Source: an uncultured Gammaproteobacteria bacterium (GTDB taxonomy: Bacteria; Patescibacteriota; Patescibacteriia; CAYHRN01). Taken from it: 36,650 bases of DNA. Numbering within the stretch: position 1 is the first letter of the stretch; every line of letters begins with the position of its first letter. Made by a program: the position numbers and the translations under genes. The DNA is taken from NCBI GenBank assembly GCA_964359155.1, contig CAYHRN010000001.1:1-36650 (forward strand), read 5' to 3'. Below, piece after piece: positions 15,088 through 22,390 of the stretch. The notes beneath the pieces were generated by a model. The model saw nothing but the letters and a program-made list of their open reading frames with translations, ran no database searches and had not been told where the DNA came from.

Positions 15088-15522
15088 TTAGTACATGCCG
15101 AGTTCGCCTAATTTTTCTGCCATACCCAGCATGTCTTTTTCAGCGCCTACCCGGAATGCATGCCATTTTTCTTTGTCCCATACTTCCAAGCGATTCAGTA
15201 CGCCCACCATGACGACTTCTTTTTTTAAATCTGCATACCCTTTCAAAGGGTCGGGAATGAGCACGCGCCCCAGAGCATCGGGCATAACTTCTTCTGCGCT
15301 ACTAAACATCAGCCGTACAAAGTTGCGAGTTGTTTCTTGGCCAATGGGGAGTTGTGAAAGTTTTTTGGCGATTTCTTCCCACACAGGGTAGGGGTACACA
15401 AACAAACATTGGTCGGGGCCACGGGTGATTACCACGCGTTCGCCCATTTGCCCACGCAGCTTTGCCGGAATAGCAAGGCGTTTTTTTACATCAATACTGT
15501 ACTGATATTCGCCTGTGAGCAT
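15088..15522 (-). CDS. mraZ: Transcriptional regulator MraZ
   Basis: 144 aa with duplicated SpoVT/AbrB-like halves (DVKKRLAIPAKLR and DALGRVLIPDPLK). First gene of the dcw cluster. Confidence 0.95.
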   Translation of the reverse strand: MLTGEYQYSIDVKKRLAIPAKLRGQMGERVVITRGPDQCLFVYPYPVWEEIAKKLSQLPIGQETTRNFVRLMFSSAEEVMPDALGRVLIPDPLKGYADLKKEVVMVGVLNRLEVWDKEKWHAFRVGAEKDMLGMAEKLGELGMY

Positions 15523-15560
15523 AGATTGAGAATGAGTTATCCCCTTTTAAGCCTGCTTAT

Positions 15561-15642
15561 CCACCACTCTATCCACTTTTCGCCACTTTTGATTCATTCT
15601 ACGCCACTTTTGAATACTCGTCAATAGTTTTCTCCCACTTTT
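15561..15642 (-). promoter_or_regulatory. mraZ promoter (TTGACG-17-TAGAAT) with an overlapping array of AAAAGTGG MraZ-box repeats
   Basis: On the minus strand the -35 box TTGACG is 15619-15624 and the -10 box TAGAAT is 15596-15601, with a 17-nt spacer. CCACTTTT (minus strand AAAAGTGG) starts at 15573, 15583, 15604 and 15635. A GTGGTGG lies at 15561-15568. Box spacings are 10, 21 and 31 nt, i.e. helical phasing. Confidence 0.6.
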
Positions 15643-15745
15643 CTGCCTTCGCCTCTCCCTTTACGGGACCCAGTAGGTCAATGTACTCATTGAGAGGCCC
15701 CGCCAGTAGGCGGGGGTGAGGGTGAATTCGCTCGGGATTCCTGCA

Positions 15746-15786
15746 CGAAAAAACGCGGTCAAATGTCCCTGCGAGACATTTGCCGC
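15746..15786 (-). terminator. Putative intrinsic terminator (minus strand)
   Basis: Minus strand reads GCGG-c-AAATGTC-tcgcagg-GACATTT-ga-CCGC followed by GTTTTTTCG. Confidence 0.5.
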
Positions 15787-15984
15787 TCGTATCTCGGCCG
15801 TTCGCTCGGCAGATACGCCCTGACGACACGCATAATTTTGTGCTCAAAATTTGCTCCGACTCGTGCCGGTCGCACTCCGTAGGGTCGGCCAAGAGGAATA
15901 CCTCACGTCATTTTGGAATTCTCCAGGTTATTGTTTTTCCTCCCCTTAGGATAAGGGGAGGTTAGGAGGGGTTACGAACCTTTC

Positions 15985-16090
15985 AAAAATGAAGAGCCCC
16001 GCTAAGTCGTGTCGACCGCGCGGGGCTGGGGGTTTCGCAATTGAGCGATATGACGTCGGGGGTGGTTGCCGCGGTTGTGCTGCCCGCAGC
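15985..16090 (-). ncRNA. Candidate small RNA of about 100 nt (predicted promoter to hairpin terminator)
   Basis: Minus-strand promoter TTGGAA (16117-16122), 17-nt spacer, TATTAT (16094-16099). GC-rich body with no ATG. Hairpin AGCCCCGC/GCGGGGCT (15995-16002 / 16020-16027) followed by CTTCATTTTT. No family recognised. Confidence 0.3.
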
Positions 16091-16207
16091 GCAATAATAA
16101 TTAAGCCGTTTTTCTATTCCAATGCACAAATCAATAGCCACGCCCGATTGTTTTCTTGCTTACTTTTTACTTTTCTATCGCAATTATTTAAAGGACGACG
16201 AGTTACT

Positions 16208-16636
16208 TTACGATAGGCCGTTCAGGAACGCATCCAGCGCATCGTCGCGTTGTTTGCTCTTCTTCTGCTCGGCCTCGAAGTCCTGGATTTCGAGTAGCGT
16301 ACATGAGAGTGCCGGAAAGGAAATGTGCCGCCACTGCCGTTTTTGTTCTATTGCGAGGACACCCTCTCTTTTGAACGCCACCGAGATGCATTCTTTACAG
16401 ATCCAATTGATCTGCCAACTGCCGTCGGCGTTCCGCACCAGTTTCCCTGCGCGATTATTCACCTGTGTATTTTCTGCCCTACCGCGCTGGCAGAATACGC
16501 ACACTCTGTTCTCCCAACCGGGCGGGATCTCTATGCGCCAGGCGTGTTTTCTTTTGCACGCATGACAGATCCCGCAGGTAGCACACACGGTGCCGTCGAA
16601 GGTGGTGCCTCCACAGATGCACCGCTTGTCGGCCAT
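16208..16636 (-). CDS. Cysteine-rich (multi-CxxC, zinc-ribbon-like) protein, unknown function
   Basis: I take the internal ATG at 16636, preceded by AGGAG; the 5' part of the track ORF overlaps the upstream gene. 142 aa: MADKRCICGG...CATCGICHAC...CVFC...CKEC, with an acidic helical tail. Codon third positions are G/C-rich, unlike neighbouring genes. Confidence 0.6.
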   Translation of the reverse strand: MADKRCICGGTTFDGTVCATCGICHACKRKHAWRIEIPPGWENRVCVFCQRGRAENTQVNNRAGKLVRNADGSWQINWICKECISVAFKREGVLAIEQKRQWRHISFPALSCTLLEIQDFEAEQKKSKQRDDALDAFLNGLS

Positions 16637-16655
16637 GATACGAGCTCCTAAGTTG

Positions 16656-17027
16656 TCAAGTTTTGAAAAAATTGAATTCGTCGCGGCGGTCAATAAGATC
16701 AAAGGCAAGGGGCATGTGAAGGGGCGGGTAAAGGTAAATGATTTTAAATGTGCCACTGGTGGTTTTGGTTATGTAATCGTGCTTAACCTCTAAAATATGC
16801 ACCAGGCCCCAGTACAGCCAGCGGCCATTAATATTTTGTACTAAAAAATTACGCACAGGTGCAGCCTGGTACATGCGTATGTCGGGTTTTTTAAATTCAA
16901 AAACTTTGCCTTCAAACTGTTGGGCAGTGAAAGGTTTATTGTTATGCATCTCATACACCAGCTCGGCAGGAAACCCCTGCTCAAGGGTAAGTTGTAAAGT
17001 GTCGTTGAGTGTCACCGTGCTGCCCAT
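16656..17027 (-). CDS. Hypothetical protein (123 aa), beta-rich, unknown function
   Basis: Complete ORF with an ATG start. Lies 19 nt downstream of vapC and 19 nt upstream of the Cys-rich gene. AT-rich host-like codon usage. No motif I can name. Confidence 0.6.
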   Translation of the reverse strand: MGSTVTLNDTLQLTLEQGFPAELVYEMHNNKPFTAQQFEGKVFEFKKPDIRMYQAAPVRNFLVQNINGRWLYWGLVHILEVKHDYITKTTSGTFKIIYLYPPLHMPLAFDLIDRRDEFNFFKT

Positions 17028-17046
17028 AGCGTTTATATATTTCTCA

Positions 17047-17430
17047 TTAAGGCCATTCAGTAAGGATATTCAAGTTTTTAATCTTCTTAAAATCACGTAC
17101 GTTATGGGTAACAAGAGGTATATTATAGAGCAATGCGGTGGAAGCAATAAACAAATCATTGGGGGTGCCACGGTACTGACGTGAAAGTAATGCTGCCGTG
17201 GTTGCCACACGATGATCCACTGGCTGGATGTTCATTTCTTTAAGTAAAAGTCCAATGCTAGCCTCCTCGTGTGCGGTAAGCTTTGGATAGGCTAATAATT
17301 CAAATTCAGTTATGACTGAAATATCAATTTTAATAGTTCCCTCACCGAATGCGTCAAAAAGAGGAACAACACCGCCTTCCCCATGTAGATACTCAAGAAT
17401 AATATTGGTATCAAGTAGTAGACGTGGCAT
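17047..17430 (-). CDS. vapC: PIN-domain ribonuclease toxin VapC
   Basis: Start taken at the ATG giving MPRLLLDTNIILEYL (PIN N-terminal acidic D). Further conserved acidic positions (ITEFEL, ...ASTALLYNIPLVTHNVRDF). 127 aa. Confidence 0.85.
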   Translation of the reverse strand: MPRLLLDTNIILEYLHGEGGVVPLFDAFGEGTIKIDISVITEFELLAYPKLTAHEEASIGLLLKEMNIQPVDHRVATTAALLSRQYRGTPNDLFIASTALLYNIPLVTHNVRDFKKIKNLNILTEWP

Positions 17431-17614
17431 AGCGCATGCGTTTTTTATCTCGAGCACGAAGTTTTCGTTGCCAGGTAACAGGGTCTGCTCGACGCGATAG
17501 TGTGCCACGTGCTTTTGCAAGAATCATTTTGCGTACCGCAAGTTCAGTGGGGAGAGTATCCCAAAGAGAAAGTGTTAATGGTGCTGATGTAGTAAGTATT
17601 TTCTCTTGTTTCAT
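17411..17614 (-). CDS. Putative VapB-type antitoxin
   Basis: 67 aa ORF directly upstream of the PIN gene and overlapping it by 20 nt. Basic C-terminus (WQRKLRARDKKRM). Assignment rests on position and size only. Confidence 0.55.
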   Translation of the reverse strand: MKQEKILTTSAPLTLSLWDTLPTELAVRKMILAKARGTLSRRADPVTWQRKLRARDKKRMRYATSTT

Positions 17615-17633
17615 AGAGAGTTATGATAGTTTC

Positions 17634-17663
17634 ACTATACACCCTGTGATTATGTTGGGTCAA
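17634..17663 (-). promoter_or_regulatory. Candidate sigma70-type promoter of the vapB cassette (TTGACC-18-TATAGT)
   Basis: Minus strand -35 TTGACC is 17658-17663 and -10 TATAGT is 17634-17639. It sits about 20 nt upstream of the vapB ATG and immediately downstream of a terminator. Confidence 0.4.
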
Positions 17664-17685
17664 CCGCATGATTGCGCGTTATCTT

Positions 17686-17725
17686 TTAAAAAATGAGGCC
17701 GCAACCGGGGTGCCGGCGGCGGCCT
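17686..17725 (-). terminator. Intrinsic terminator after the 112-aa GC-rich gene
   Basis: Minus strand reads AGGCCGC-cg-CCGG-cacc-CCGG-tt-GCGGCCT followed by CATTTTTT. Outer stems are at 17696-17702 and 17719-17725. Confidence 0.6.
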
Positions 17726-17751
17726 GGGGAACGCGGAGGTGGTGGGCATCG

Positions 17752-18090
17752 CTAGCCCACTCCTGCGATGCCATCTTCAATCCTCTTGCGGAATGCGGCG
17801 TTCGGGTCGGAGCTCCTCGTGTGTTCAGGGATCTCGTTGGATCCCCTAATCTTCTCGAACAGAGCGCTGGCTTCTTCGGCAGTCAACTTGCCGGCGTGCT
17901 GCGCTTCCTCCAGCGCGACCCGCGCTTCATCCTTGCTACAGAACGTGATCCGCAGATCAGTGAACTCGCCCTCAAAGATGCTGCAGTGGGAGAAATGCAG
18001 CTTGTCAACGAGAAGGCCTTCTGGAGAGCGTTCCGGTTCCGCGCACTCCGCGATATCGCGAGAGATAATTACTTGCAGGTTCCGTGCCAT
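17752..18090 (-). CDS. Hypothetical protein (112 aa), GC3-rich, likely foreign origin
   Basis: I prefer the ATG at 18090, preceded by GGAGAAG. Sequence MARNLQVIISRDIAECAEPERSPEGLLVDKLHF...KLTAEEASALFEKIRG.... Strong G/C preference at codon position 3 in this frame. The overlapping plus-strand ORFs look like GC-rich shadows. Confidence 0.55.
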   Translation of the reverse strand: MARNLQVIISRDIAECAEPERSPEGLLVDKLHFSHCSIFEGEFTDLRITFCSKDEARVALEEAQHAGKLTAEEASALFEKIRGSNEIPEHTRSSDPNAAFRKRIEDGIAGVG

Positions 18091-18427
18091 GCTGTTCTTC
18101 TCCAAAAGTGGATGTGCGAGGGAGGGAAGGATGGTGGCATCGATCCCCCCTCGCTTTAAGGCCGCCTGATGGCGTTTGCCGCACCCGAATAGGCACCAAA
18201 CAGAGGCAACCGCACACTCAAGCGAGTAAAGAAGCAGGGACGCATTAGGGGCGTGCAAGCACGCGTGCTGCGTATGTCTTTACGGAGGCTGAGTGGTGTT
18301 GGTGCATGTGATGTGCCCAGCGCCATAGGGTGGCGCTTGTTCGCTTGGCCTTTCGGCCTCTGAAGACAAACTACTCGCCCTTATCGATAAAGACCTCCTT
18401 TCTCTTAAGAGTTGCAACACGAAGTTT

Positions 18428-19573
18428 CTACCCCTCCTTGGGTTCTTGTACCATAAGCATCGTGAAGAGTGCAAGAAGGGTCATGGCGAGCGCAAAGGAG
18501 AATGGGGCAAGCGGGCCGTAGGCGTCCCAGAGAACGCCGGCAATGAAGCTGGCAGGAAGGGCGCAGAGGCCGGTGATCATTTTGAAAAATCCTAAGATGC
18601 TGGCGCGTTGCTCCGCGGGTGCGCTTTCAGAAACAAAAGCACTTTGTGCGGGCTTCAATGCGCCTTTGTGCATGCCATACAGCGCAAATAATATGCCGGC
18701 AGAAACCCAAGAAAGCGCCGGCATGGCAATAAATGCTACGGTGACCACCGCCCATAAGGTGAAAGAAATAATTAAAGTAAGGCGGCGGCTAAACCGGTCG
18801 GCAAATTTGCCTGAAAGCCCCGAAAAAATAGAAGCAGAAAGTGAAAAGATTAAATAAAACACCGGCAGACTAGTGAGGGGAAATTGCTGATCTTTCAAGT
18901 ATAAAATCAAAAATGAGTAACTAAAAAACCCTAGGGTGAAAAAGATGTTACTTAGGGTGAAAAGATTAAAATTGCGCCCTAAGTTTTTCCATGCGAGGTC
19001 TTTGAATACATTTCCATCGCGCGTATCCTGTATGAAAAGTATCACCAGCAGCACCGAAATCAGCGTAGGAATAGCGGCAATAAGAAAAATGGTTTTGAGG
19101 TCGAGAAAAGTGATAAGCCAAATGGAAAGGAGAATGCCAAGCACTGCCCCGGCATTGTCCCACGCTTCAATAATACCAAAATTGCGTGCACGGTTTTGCC
19201 GCGTGCTGATGTCGGCCACCATGGCATCCCGTGGCGCGTCCCTCATTTTACCTGCGCGATCCAAAAATATGGCAGGGAAGAGCATCCCCCAATGACTGCT
19301 TATTGCATACCCCACGCGGCTGAGTGCGCCACACAAATACCCTGCCCAAATAAAAATTTTGCGTTTTTTAAGCCGATCAGAAAGATAACCAGAAAATACT
19401 TGCGAAATACTGGTGATGCTTTCCTTAAACCCGTCGAGTATGCCGATAACCTTGAAAGGTGCACCTAGGGTTTCCTTCAAAAACACGGGCCAAAGAGGCG
19501 CAATAATATCAGAGCCAATGTCGTTAAAAAATGAAGCTGCGGCAAAGGTACGCACCGTACGTTTAGTTTTCAT
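18428..19573 (-). CDS. MFS transporter
   Basis: 381 aa with about 11-12 hydrophobic helices. Contains an MFS loop 2-3 motif (GYLSDRLKKRK). Confidence 0.85.
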   Translation of the reverse strand: MKTKRTVRTFAAASFFNDIGSDIIAPLWPVFLKETLGAPFKVIGILDGFKESITSISQVFSGYLSDRLKKRKIFIWAGYLCGALSRVGYAISSHWGMLFPAIFLDRAGKMRDAPRDAMVADISTRQNRARNFGIIEAWDNAGAVLGILLSIWLITFLDLKTIFLIAAIPTLISVLLVILFIQDTRDGNVFKDLAWKNLGRNFNLFTLSNIFFTLGFFSYSFLILYLKDQQFPLTSLPVFYLIFSLSASIFSGLSGKFADRFSRRLTLIISFTLWAVVTVAFIAMPALSWVSAGILFALYGMHKGALKPAQSAFVSESAPAEQRASILGFFKMITGLCALPASFIAGVLWDAYGPLAPFSFALAMTLLALFTMLMVQEPKEG

Positions 19574-19589
19574 ATGTTAATTAGAGTTT

Positions 19590-21293
19590 TTACAGCACAT
19601 ACGCCAGTACATGCACGGCATGCCAATCAAGAGCGGTTTTTGGTACGCGCTTAAATTTTTTAATGAATTGCTTTAATGCTTTTTGTTCTTTCGTGATATC
19701 ACGTGCGTTCGTCGTGTCATAGATTAACGCATCCCATATGTTTTGATGGTTTTGTTTTTTGGCATTGAAGTTTGCACCCACTACTATTTTAAACGTTCGT
19801 AATGCAGAGGGCTTCATACGTTGCTCCAACTTAGTATCGCGCAGAATGGCAGGAGGCGCCATTACTACCTGTACTACTTTTGGGATTTCCGGGAGATAAA
19901 ATACCGACCGGTATACAGGTTCTAGCCCTGGTAATTTTAAGCACACCACGCGTTCGCCAGGCTCCCCTTCTGCAAGACGCCAGGGCAGGGTTGCAGCGTA
20001 GGGCATTTCGGCAACATTCGTAAAATTACAAATGGGCGAGGCAAGCGGGTTGCCGTTCGTCACTTGCAATGTGGTGGCATTGGTAGCCGCAACGGAAACT
20101 GTTGTGTCGAGTGCGGTGGTGGTAGCATTTCCACTATTCACGGTAAAACTTTGCAAGGTGATGGGTGGAGGTAATAGTGTTTTTAATGCGTTGAGAGCTT
20201 TTGCAGCATTTACTCTTCCTTTGCCTAATTTTCCTACATAATTAGGATTCACTGCATCAATGGGGTCGGCAGAATCCACCAGTACTTGAATAAGTTTTGT
20301 GGCAGGCAGATGTGGTGCCACGGCACGCATTAACGCTAAGGTGCCGCTTACTACAGGCGCTGCAAGGCTGGTACCTTGCCACAAACCACCATAGGGAGTT
20401 TGAAAATCGGTGTCGCTTGAATTGCTATACTGGGCTCCATAGATACCCTTTCCTGGTGCAGCGATGTCGACACAATTGGCACCAAAATGAGCAAACTTTG
20501 CTTTTTGATCTTGTTGGTCAAGTGCCGTCACGCCTACCACTATTTCTTTCCCCTCGCCTTCAAAACAAATAGGGTAATGGGGGGTAGCATCAAGATCCAC
20601 GCCATTGCCAGTTTTATCATTACCCGCCGCTGCCACCACAATGACATTTTTTTGCGCCGCCGTTTTGAGCACCTCACGAAACGCCTCACCCACATTCCCA
20701 GTGCCTACAAAACTCATATTAATAATACTGGCGCCCTGCGCCATAGCATATTCCATGGCATGTGCCACACGGCTTGCCTCTGAAGTGCCCTGCGCGTCCA
20801 GTGCCTTCAGCGCCATAATGCTTACATGCCAATTAATGCCGCTCACGCCCTCGCTATTATTTCCCTGGGCGCCAATAATACCGGCTACCAAGCTTCCATG
20901 ATGCGTGACGGCCCTATACTCGGCAAATCCTTTATCAATAGTAGGGTTGAGATTATTGTTGGCATCAATAAAATTCCATCCGTGCACGTCGTCGATAAAT
21001 CCATTACCATCATCGTCCATGTTGTTGCCTGCGATTTCACGCGGATTTACCCACAAATTATTTTTAAAATCTGGGTGGTCAATATTAAAGCCCGAATCAA
21101 TCACGGCTACAATAACTTGTTTATCGCCCGTGCTGATATCCCATGCATTGGGGGCATCAATCTGGCGTAAATACCATTGCTCGTGATACAGAGGGTCGTT
21201 GGGGAGTACCGCGGCAAAGGCAGGAGTAATGGTGAGTATTAAAAATGTCATCCCGATGAAAATGACAGAATGAAAAAAATGTTTTGTTACCAT
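19590..21293 (-). CDS. Secreted subtilisin-like serine protease (peptidase S8) with an uncharacterised C-terminal extension
   Basis: Catalytic triad contexts VAVIDSGF (Asp), HHGSLVAGIIG (His) and GTSLAAPVVSG (Ser). Signal peptide after the ATG at 21293; the track start at 21320 is GTG. Confidence 0.9.
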   Translation of the reverse strand: MVTKHFFHSVIFIGMTFLILTITPAFAAVLPNDPLYHEQWYLRQIDAPNAWDISTGDKQVIVAVIDSGFNIDHPDFKNNLWVNPREIAGNNMDDDGNGFIDDVHGWNFIDANNNLNPTIDKGFAEYRAVTHHGSLVAGIIGAQGNNSEGVSGINWHVSIMALKALDAQGTSEASRVAHAMEYAMAQGASIINMSFVGTGNVGEAFREVLKTAAQKNVIVVAAAGNDKTGNGVDLDATPHYPICFEGEGKEIVVGVTALDQQDQKAKFAHFGANCVDIAAPGKGIYGAQYSNSSDTDFQTPYGGLWQGTSLAAPVVSGTLALMRAVAPHLPATKLIQVLVDSADPIDAVNPNYVGKLGKGRVNAAKALNALKTLLPPPITLQSFTVNSGNATTTALDTTVSVAATNATTLQVTNGNPLASPICNFTNVAEMPYAATLPWRLAEGEPGERVVCLKLPGLEPVYRSVFYLPEIPKVVQVVMAPPAILRDTKLEQRMKPSALRTFKIVVGANFNAKKQNHQNIWDALIYDTTNARDITKEQKALKQFIKKFKRVPKTALDWHAVHVLAYVL

Positions 21294-22390
21294 ATTATTA
21301 TTCCCCGAATGATCCACCACACGGCGCTAAAAAATGGGTTTGCCACATATGTCAAGAGGGGGGATGAAATTTCTTGATAGTTAATGCACCCTGTAAACAG
21401 ACGCGTTGCCTCTTTATCACTTATGACGCGTGAGTTCTGCACTTCCTTCCTTTTTTTAAGTATATCATGCCACACCGATTGTGAGAAAAAATAGCGGTAT
21501 ACGCGTAGCTTTTCACGCCACCAGCCCATGCGGAAGGCCTGGAAAAGAAGTCCCAGCTCCATGAGCAATAAGAAGGGTGATAGAGAGATGAGCGTGAGGA
21601 AATGATAATTTTGCAACATGGTGATAAACCTGTTGCGTTCCATGAAATAGTATTTGGTGATGCTTTTACTAAAAGAGTATTTATGGTACACCACTGACTT
21701 GGGTGCCAGTACCACGCGCCACCCTTTAAGCCTCGCACGCCAGCACAAGTCCAGGTCTTCGTGATACATGAAGTATTTTTCATCAAAAAGGCCGATCTGC
21801 TGGTATAGGGAGTTGCGGACGAGCATCGCTGCTCCGGAGGCGTAGGGAATTTCGGGATAGGTTCTAGGTTCTAGGTTATAGGTTATAGAAGAGAGCGGGT
21901 CGCGGTATCCACGAGAAAAACCAAAACCCAAGAAATGGATTTCATTGCCAAGAGAGTTAATAAGGTTGGTTTGTGGATGAAGCAACAATAGCGATTGCGC
22001 AATGCCAATTTTGTTGTTGCTCTCCCCTGCTGCCACTAATTCTTTGAGCCAGTTTGCGTTTACCACCGTGTCTTGATTGAGCAATACCAGGTAGTCAGGA
22101 TTAAATTGTTGTGCGTGAGCTGCAGCAACATTATTGCCACCTGCAAAGGCGGTATTTTCTTTGCTTTCTATAATATCCATGGCGATGCTCAACTTTTGGA
22201 AGTGAGACTTCCAAAAGTTGAGCTGTGCTACGGTGTCGTCACTTGAGGCGTTATCGACGACCATCACATGCCAACGATCAGGCGGATAATCGGTATTGAC
22301 TAGGCTACTAAAACAATCGCCCAGGTAGCTCTGGGCGTTGTACATGACCATCAGGACCGCGACGCGAGGGGTAGCGTTATTGTTTGTCAT
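21287..22390 (-). CDS. Glycosyltransferase family 2 (rhamnosyltransferase-like)
   Basis: VAVLMVMYNAQSYL...VVDNASSDDT...FAGGNN...YHEDLDLCWR. ATG at 22390; the track start is TTG. Confidence 0.85.
   Translation of the reverse strand: MTNNNATPRVAVLMVMYNAQSYLGDCFSSLVNTDYPPDRWHVMVVDNASSDDTVAQLNFWKSHFQKLSIAMDIIESKENTAFAGGNNVAAAHAQQFNPDYLVLLNQDTVVNANWLKELVAAGESNNKIGIAQSLLLLHPQTNLINSLGNEIHFLGFGFSRGYRDPLSSITYNLEPRTYPEIPYASGAAMLVRNSLYQQIGLFDEKYFMYHEDLDLCWRARLKGWRVVLAPKSVVYHKYSFSKSITKYYFMERNRFITMLQNYHFLTLISLSPFLLLMELGLLFQAFRMGWWREKLRVYRYFFSQSVWHDILKKRKEVQNSRVISDKEATRLFTGCINYQEISSPLLTYVANPFFSAVWWIIRGIIIW

Follow-up and report, generated by a model that had tools for sequence, protein, structure and literature searches.

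The window analysed here, a stretch of 36,650 nucleotides (nt) from contig CAYHRN010000001.1, carries on its minus strand four closely stacked open reading frames (ORFs) behind a single candidate promoter: ORF A, a gene for a PIN-domain protein (hereafter PIN), ORF C and ORF D. A preliminary description of this DNA took the two last genes for extensions of a toxin-antitoxin (TA) or defence-type module. What we consider the probable explanation is that a mobile VapBC-type pair, formed by ORF A and PIN, stands ahead of two independent genes, the conserved ORF C and the orphan, zinc-binding-type ORF D, in a compact genome. Nothing supports a functional coupling of the four genes. The features on which the argument relies are the following:

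17411..17614, minus strand: ORF A, 67 amino acids (aa), putative antitoxin of VapB type, family unclassified
17047..17430, minus strand: PIN, 127 aa from its ATG (MPRLLLDTN), VapC-type PIN-domain toxin
16656..17027, minus strand: ORF C, 123 aa, from a large and conserved family without a name
16208..16636, minus strand: ORF D, 142 aa, multi-CxxC orphan with a predicted C-terminal helix
17634..17663, minus strand: sigma-70-like promoter of the vapBC unit, TTGACC-18-TATAGT, agreeing with 10 of 12 consensus positions
17687..17725, minus strand: terminator-like hairpin with a U-run, which ends the upstream GC-rich unit and marks the 5' limit of the transcription unit
15982..16027, minus strand: terminator-like hairpin with a U-rich tract about 180 nt past the ORF D stop, the probable 3' end

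The layout given in the preliminary description was recovered in full, including the coordinates of the four ORFs, the overlap of 20 nt between ORF A and PIN (17411-17430), and the two 19-nt spacers that separate PIN from ORF C (17028-17046) and ORF C from ORF D (16637-16655), the sequences of which are dissimilar to each other. The longest PIN frame in the ORF list begins at a TTG at 17520; the ATG is taken here as the start instead, since the Pfam profile for PIN matches the ATG form from residue 5 onwards and the homologue on contig L090 (see below) has its start at this ATG, too.

The identification of the first two genes as a vapBC-like pair is borne out by the toxin. PIN matches the Pfam family PF01850 with 60.3 bits (3.6e-16, cut-off 23.6) over profile positions 2-118 of 120, and it also matches solved VapC proteins (7by2_B at 6e-7 and 6nkl_A at 9e-5), with which the catalytic residues can be aligned, namely the acidic tetrad D7/E43/D92/D113 together with T108-x-N110 and D113-F. 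As for the putative antitoxin, a DNA-binding class of the AbrB/SpoVT, ribbon-helix-helix, Phd/YefM or helix-turn-helix type was not detected: queried as a single sequence, ORF A matched no model of Pfam, NCBIfam, PADLOC and PHROGs at E<=1, and no PDB sequence. Its sole relative is the protein P0123, with 72% identity (73% in the alignment used for the substitution rates given below).

The window is an entire contig, on record in NCBI and in ENA, and near-identical short contigs come from the Hainich groundwater well H52. P0123 is encoded on two contigs from another Hainich well, L090 and L091, where it is followed by a PIN gene, again with an overlap of 20 nt. Over ORF A and the first 101 codons of PIN, the window and these contigs share 76.6% nucleotide identity. 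The Nei-Gojobori ratio of nonsynonymous to synonymous substitution (dN/dS), calculated against the L090 homologue, amounts to 0.23 (ORF A) and 0.11 (PIN), values which indicate that both are real genes under purifying selection. The L090 promoter reads TTGACT-17-TATTAT with the same GGTG ahead, so that a pattern of TTGAC(C/T), GGTG and TAT(A/T)(G/A)T is conserved; this likeness was read by eye, MAFFT having aligned the -35 box alone.

The surroundings of the related pair point to mobility. In the regions L091 1-330 and L090 1-200, a DDE (rve-like) transposase ORF, of which the 3' end is present, closes directly upstream of the vapBC unit and its promoter, and the 5' context of vapBC there is therefore unlike that of the window; on this side, the vapBC unit travels alone. 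Such an arrangement is consistent with a pair moving with, or beside, an insertion sequence (IS) element. The C-terminal end of the transposase-like ORF reads ...HTYPRTPKMNAHCERFNRTIQEEF...WYNGERPHWGL.... No C-like or D-like gene follows the relatives of PIN found in metagenomes, which share 35-47% identity with it. From these comparisons, ORF A and PIN would represent a self-contained, mobile two-gene module of the VapBC type, whose antitoxin family is unclassified.

ORF C would be a stand-alone chromosomal gene from a widespread and strongly constrained family that shows no link to TA systems. A word-indexed search retrieved 561 relatives, 60-70% identical and all free of Pfam domains; those that bear a name belong to Patescibacteria, Woesearchaeota, Pacearchaeota and Micrarchaeota. 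Among GTDB species representatives, homologues with 55-94% identity are present in 363 genomes, which encompass Patescibacteria, DPANN archaea, many gut metagenome-assembled genomes (MAGs) assigned to 'Clostridia', and some MAGs labelled as Gammaproteobacteria or Methanosarcinales, labels that may be unreliable. An alignment of 30 sequences has 35 invariant columns, including an N-terminal MGS and the motifs NDTLQ, QGFP and WxYWGL, and many of the invariant residues are basic, His or Asp. Identity between the archaeal sequences and those of the candidate phyla radiation (CPR) has a mean of 0.69 and a maximum of 0.94, compared with 0.66 within CPR, and the sequences do not split by domain, which suggests repeated inter-domain transfer together with strong constraint.

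The structure of ORF C modelled with this alignment by AlphaFold2 (AF2) is a small beta-rich domain with a predicted local distance difference test score (pLDDT) of 92.3. Neither sequence nor profile searches matched ORF C to any PDB chain or to any model of Pfam, NCBIfam, PADLOC and PHROGs, and the last four are equally silent on ORF D, in agreement with the preliminary description, in which neither extra protein was assigned to a recognised family. ORF C was likewise absent from the phage, plasmid and IMG/VR collections searched. An apparent 369-aa 'fusion' of ORF C in one locus (L041) was rejected, as the extra part is an upstream in-frame run that happens to be free of stops and has no domain.

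The neighbourhood of ORF C was surveyed in 80 of the 363 genomes (loci L006-L085; 460,771 nt), in which the ORFs immediately up- and downstream were scanned against Pfam, and PIN genes were searched with phmmer, using the PIN of the window, and with a hidden Markov model built from five PINs. The survey turned up a single PIN gene, in locus L039, at a distance of not more than 3 kb from the ORF C homologue; it is paired with a Phd-like gene, and a cupin gene separates this pair from the homologue. The 155 immediate neighbours fall into 74 families upstream and 85 downstream, the commonest being GNAT, NUDIX, HAD, LD-carboxypeptidase, S51, MazG and MFS, and no TA family occurs among them twice. 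A few are integrase, resolvase or GIY-YIG genes, and a Cys-rich ORF beside the ORF C homologue was found in 0 of the 80 loci. In three long contigs with ORF C the neighbours are unrelated, and PIN is absent. The proposal that the two extra genes extend a TA or defence module is thus left unsupported, since the homologues of ORF C essentially never neighbour PIN or TA genes, an outcome that the preliminary description itself had named as refuting, and since no homologue of ORF D was found.

One of the surveyed loci, in the Patescibacteria MAG L034, has the order tsaB-like gene, ORF C, intrinsic terminator, promoter, leader and mraZ-rsmH, and holds neither vapBC nor ORF D. In that MAG (L034 2395-2914), the terminator after ORF C is of the classic type, a promoter-like TTGACA..TATAAT accompanied by GTGG boxes precedes mraZ, and the mraZ leader, some 330 nt long, contains several GC-rich hairpins.

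ORF D is probably a coding sequence, as judged from its enrichment in CxxC motifs. It has 11 cysteines where 3.5 would be expected (7.7% of its residues, compared with 0.78% in the genes of the window), with CxxC motifs starting at residues 18, 21, 24, 46 and 80, plus a C6-x-C8. At least four CxxC motifs would arise with a probability of 4e-5 in random ORFs of equal composition, and with one of 0.003 after a shuffling of the residues of ORF D itself. The cysteine clusters noted in the preliminary description, and the AGGAG ahead of the start, are both present. The most likely product, considering these motifs, is a zinc-binding protein of the multi-CxxC type. The best Pfam match, zf-C4pol, has an E-value of 0.27 and lies below the threshold, and the AF2 model, built from the one sequence, is of no use, with a pLDDT of 48.8. 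In a search of 5.8 billion clustered proteins and an exhaustive HMMER comparison with 1.84 billion representatives, the only true match of ORF D was its own copy; three further matches among the representatives (P0124-P0126) are artefacts, giant repeat proteins that share with it nothing beyond a repeated short 'LVxNxDGSW' motif. IMG/VR gave no match and the PDB no usable one. Since ORF D lacks homologues, no co-occurrence of this gene with the TA pair can exist.

The AGGAG stands 8 nt ahead of the ATG of ORF D and is the sole AGGAG Shine-Dalgarno sequence in the window. Shine-Dalgarno-like motifs, mostly weak 4-mers, occur within 22 nt of the start in about 5 of the 34 ORFs of the window, an approximate count in which the starts are those of the longest ORFs. 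The G+C content at third codon positions (GC3) of ORF D is 0.664, which, relative to 30 genes of the window (0.443+/-0.054), corresponds to z=+4.1. High GC3 and a lone AGGAG, in a window mostly devoid of Shine-Dalgarno sequences, argue for a foreign origin of ORF D, which would probably be a lineage-specific orphan acquired horizontally. The preliminary description had also contrasted a GC3-rich last gene with three host-like genes upstream. Its first half stands, ORF D being compositionally foreign, and so does the host-like character of ORF C (0.50, z=+1.1); ORF A (0.265, z=-3.3) and PIN (0.328, z=-2.1) are instead AT-rich outliers.

A single promoter had been proposed for the four genes, and the TTGACC-18-TATAGT match is indeed found at 17663..17634. 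A promoter scan gave 5 sites, compared with 3.6+/-2.1 in shuffled sequences, and this match is therefore not significant by itself. Hairpins of terminator type bracket the unit, and this makes the co-transcription of the four ORFs plausible. The upstream one (17725-17687), GGCCGCC.GCCGG....CCGGU.GCGGCC followed by UCAUUUUUU, has a folding energy of -25.5 kcal/mol (z=-2.98), and the downstream one (16027-15982), followed by CUCUUCAUUUUUG, of -24.9 kcal/mol (z=-4.87); in both cases, 0 of 200 shuffles were as good. A shared transcript does not imply a shared function. The same applies to the tight stacking that had been put forward as a sign of a module, given that co-oriented neighbours in the window lie a median of 13 nt apart, with 20 of 29 gaps not exceeding 25 nt: stacking at 19 nt is the norm for this genome.

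Several observations weigh against the explanation preferred here. The four ORFs are apparently served by one promoter without an internal terminator, so that co-expression is possible; the L090/L091 contigs stop inside PIN, where the comparison with them ends; an AT-richer block, which opens with the promoter and closes with ORF C, extends over about 16650-17700, with a GC content of 0.36-0.47 between flanks of 0.51-0.65; and any function given to ORF C is guesswork. Regarding the latter, Foldseek searches of the PDB gave nothing better than an E-value of 0.085 and a template modelling (TM) score of 0.34, with PilZ, SRA, EVE and YTH barrels at noise level at the top of the list, and the one significant match in BFVD, A7KUZ5 (E 8e-5, TM 0.52), is a phage protein without a name. 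That ORF C binds or processes a nucleotide-like ligand is a weak guess.

The shared promoter, the co-orientation and the short spacers are also what would be expected of a lineage-specific four-gene module, in which ORF C and ORF D would act as sensor, chaperone or regulator of an extended VapBC TA or defence system, and tripartite TA systems do exist, for instance those made up of toxin, antitoxin and chaperone. Against it stand the 80 loci, in which ORF C is not associated with PIN or with any TA family, the lack of C-like and D-like neighbours around the relatives of PIN, a spacing typical of the genome, and three parts with three different compositions; moreover, a conserved module cannot be demonstrated with an ORF D that has no homologues, and none of the four proteins matched a model of PADLOC-DB v2 at E<=1, nor did the upstream ORF. 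We consider such a module highly improbable. A smaller unit, in which vapBC and ORF C would form one mobile block, with ORF C as an often-transferred cargo delivered with the addiction module into a GC-richer region and ORF D belonging to the recipient or to another foreign flank, is somewhat less so, and still quite unlikely. The sharp fall in GC content, which coincides exactly with the stretch from promoter to ORF C end, speaks for it, and ORF C and vapBC could have arrived together as one AT-richer block; the frequent horizontal transfer of ORF C suggested by the archaea-CPR identities and the few integrase, resolvase and GIY-YIG neighbours point the same way. However, GC3 separates vapBC (0.27-0.33) from ORF C (0.50), no direct or inverted flanking repeats that could mark an insertion were found beyond short chance matches, ORF C is not in the phage, plasmid and IMG/VR collections, any PIN near ORF C occurs in just that one locus of the 80, and L034 has ORF C beside mraZ without vapBC.

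A third alternative concerns ORF D only, which might be non-functional, a chance or decaying frame in GC-rich foreign or intergenic DNA, leaving a cassette of three genes. The absence of homologues from both protein collections would agree with this, as would the low-confidence AF2 model, the 147-aa shadow ORF on the opposite strand, the long doubtful ORFs that nearby GC-rich stretches also hold, and the fact that the exact 142-aa product is recorded from a small ENA contig only, and not from the 36,650-nt NCBI record. Nevertheless, the five CxxC motifs are improbable by chance at the values given above, 11 cysteines stand against 3.5 expected, the canonical AGGAG is placed correctly ahead of the ATG, and an open frame of 143 codons is, by our own estimate, unlikely to arise by chance in about 1.1 kb. 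We therefore hold a non-functional ORF D to be unlikely.

Under the explanation that we favour, a mobile VapBC pair next to two independent genes, the PIN toxin would cleave RNA, the labile antitoxin would block the toxin, and the complex of both would repress its own promoter, by analogy with characterised VapBC systems. The pair would have landed upstream of, or beside, ORF C, with ORF D placed after ORF C and before the mraZ promoter. The compact genome, rather than translational coupling within a four-part system, would account for the short spacers, and a likely side effect would be that transcription from the vapBC promoter, itself autoregulated, continues into ORF C and ORF D.

Downstream of the locus lie mraZ and rsmH, which, read from the ORF layout, head a division and cell-wall gene cluster. 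A promoter-like TTGACG-17-TAGAAT for mraZ (15624..15596, minus strand) is found amid AAAGTGG repeats, with a 21-nt tandem pair at 15571-15612, and these AAAGTGG boxes resemble the direct-repeat operators to which MraZ binds elsewhere among bacteria. The approximately 580 nt between ORF D and this promoter (15625-16207) have a GC content of up to 0.59 and contain no convincing ORF. Two hairpin-forming stretches stand out in this region, a 276-nt segment (z=-2.3) and 16027-15995 (z=-4.9). Rfam matched nothing here at E<=1, and the region may represent a 3' untranslated region, a decayed gene or an undescribed RNA. In the window as a whole, Rfam gave nothing at its gathering thresholds, and the matches at E<=1 over 15400-18500 are two chance eukaryotic ones.

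On the other side, upstream of the vapBC promoter, the stretch 17752-18258 (GC 0.51-0.65) holds long ORFs on both strands, whose coding status is uncertain: one of 163 aa on the plus strand, with its product on record (NCBI/ENA), and one of 168 aa, or of 112 aa from an ATG at 18090, on the minus strand, the latter with a GC3 of 0.675, like that of ORF D. No family match passed the threshold for this stretch, the best being SHOCT-like (E 0.067) and DVU_2496 (E 0.0013). The ORF further upstream is taken to encode an MFS-type transporter, given the Pfam MFS_1 annotations of its fragmented copy in contig L089 (ENA ERZ1300416, 5389 nt). This contig, which stems from the same population, aligns to 16231-21743 with 96.7% identity and 79 gap openings, nearly all of them deletions, at a coverage of 1.1. 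Its use as evidence of pseudogenisation or selection was rejected, as the breaks in ORF A, PIN, ORF C and the MFS gene are almost certainly assembly or sequencing errors.

As a TA finding, the locus carries little weight, adding one more VapBC pair, with an unclassified antitoxin, from a groundwater Patescibacteria-like genome; a literature search on TA systems in Patescibacteria found no directly relevant paper. It does illustrate that, in compact genomes, a stack of genes resembling an operon needs comparative support before it is taken for a functional module. Of the by-products, the ORF C family is the one of greatest interest, a tractable structural and biochemical target for CPR and DPANN biology, since it is highly conserved, present in both domains and confidently modelled, and has no name or Pfam model; families of unknown function common to DPANN and bacteria are reportedly few (PMC8204110). 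It may be speculated, as a tentative proposal that we regard as rather unlikely, that this family of about 125 aa, shared by ultra-small Patescibacteria, DPANN and some gut Firmicutes, apparently through inter-domain transfer, and with a fold without solved homologue, has a specific and possibly nucleotide-related function of importance to a reduced-genome or symbiotic lifestyle. That it has been placed, in this lineage, under a promoter autoregulated by VapBC is still more speculative.

Three known types of systems can be compared with the locus. With the type II VapBC systems (e.g., 7by2, 6nkl and 3zvk), the window pair has in common a PIN domain bearing the D/E/D/D tetrad, a small gene that precedes the toxin gene and runs 20 nt into it, a sigma-70-like promoter of its own, purifying selection on both genes and a patchy mobile distribution, a relative being found beside a transposase remnant. 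It differs from them in that the 67-aa protein fits no known antitoxin DNA-binding family and has a single known relative, and in that two unrelated genes follow the pair in the same probable transcript. In tripartite TA systems, conservation extends from the TA pair to the third gene. The window resembles them in having extra co-oriented genes directly after the pair under one promoter, and departs from them in that its third-gene family is beside PIN or TA genes in one of 80 loci, its fourth gene has no relatives, and none of its genes has a SecB-like or other chaperone signature. ORF C, finally, is comparable to the PUA-like and PilZ-like barrels (SRA, EVE/THYN1, YTH and PilZ) in being small, beta-rich and of about 120 aa, even though its matches to them stay at noise level (E >= 0.085, TM <= 0.34).

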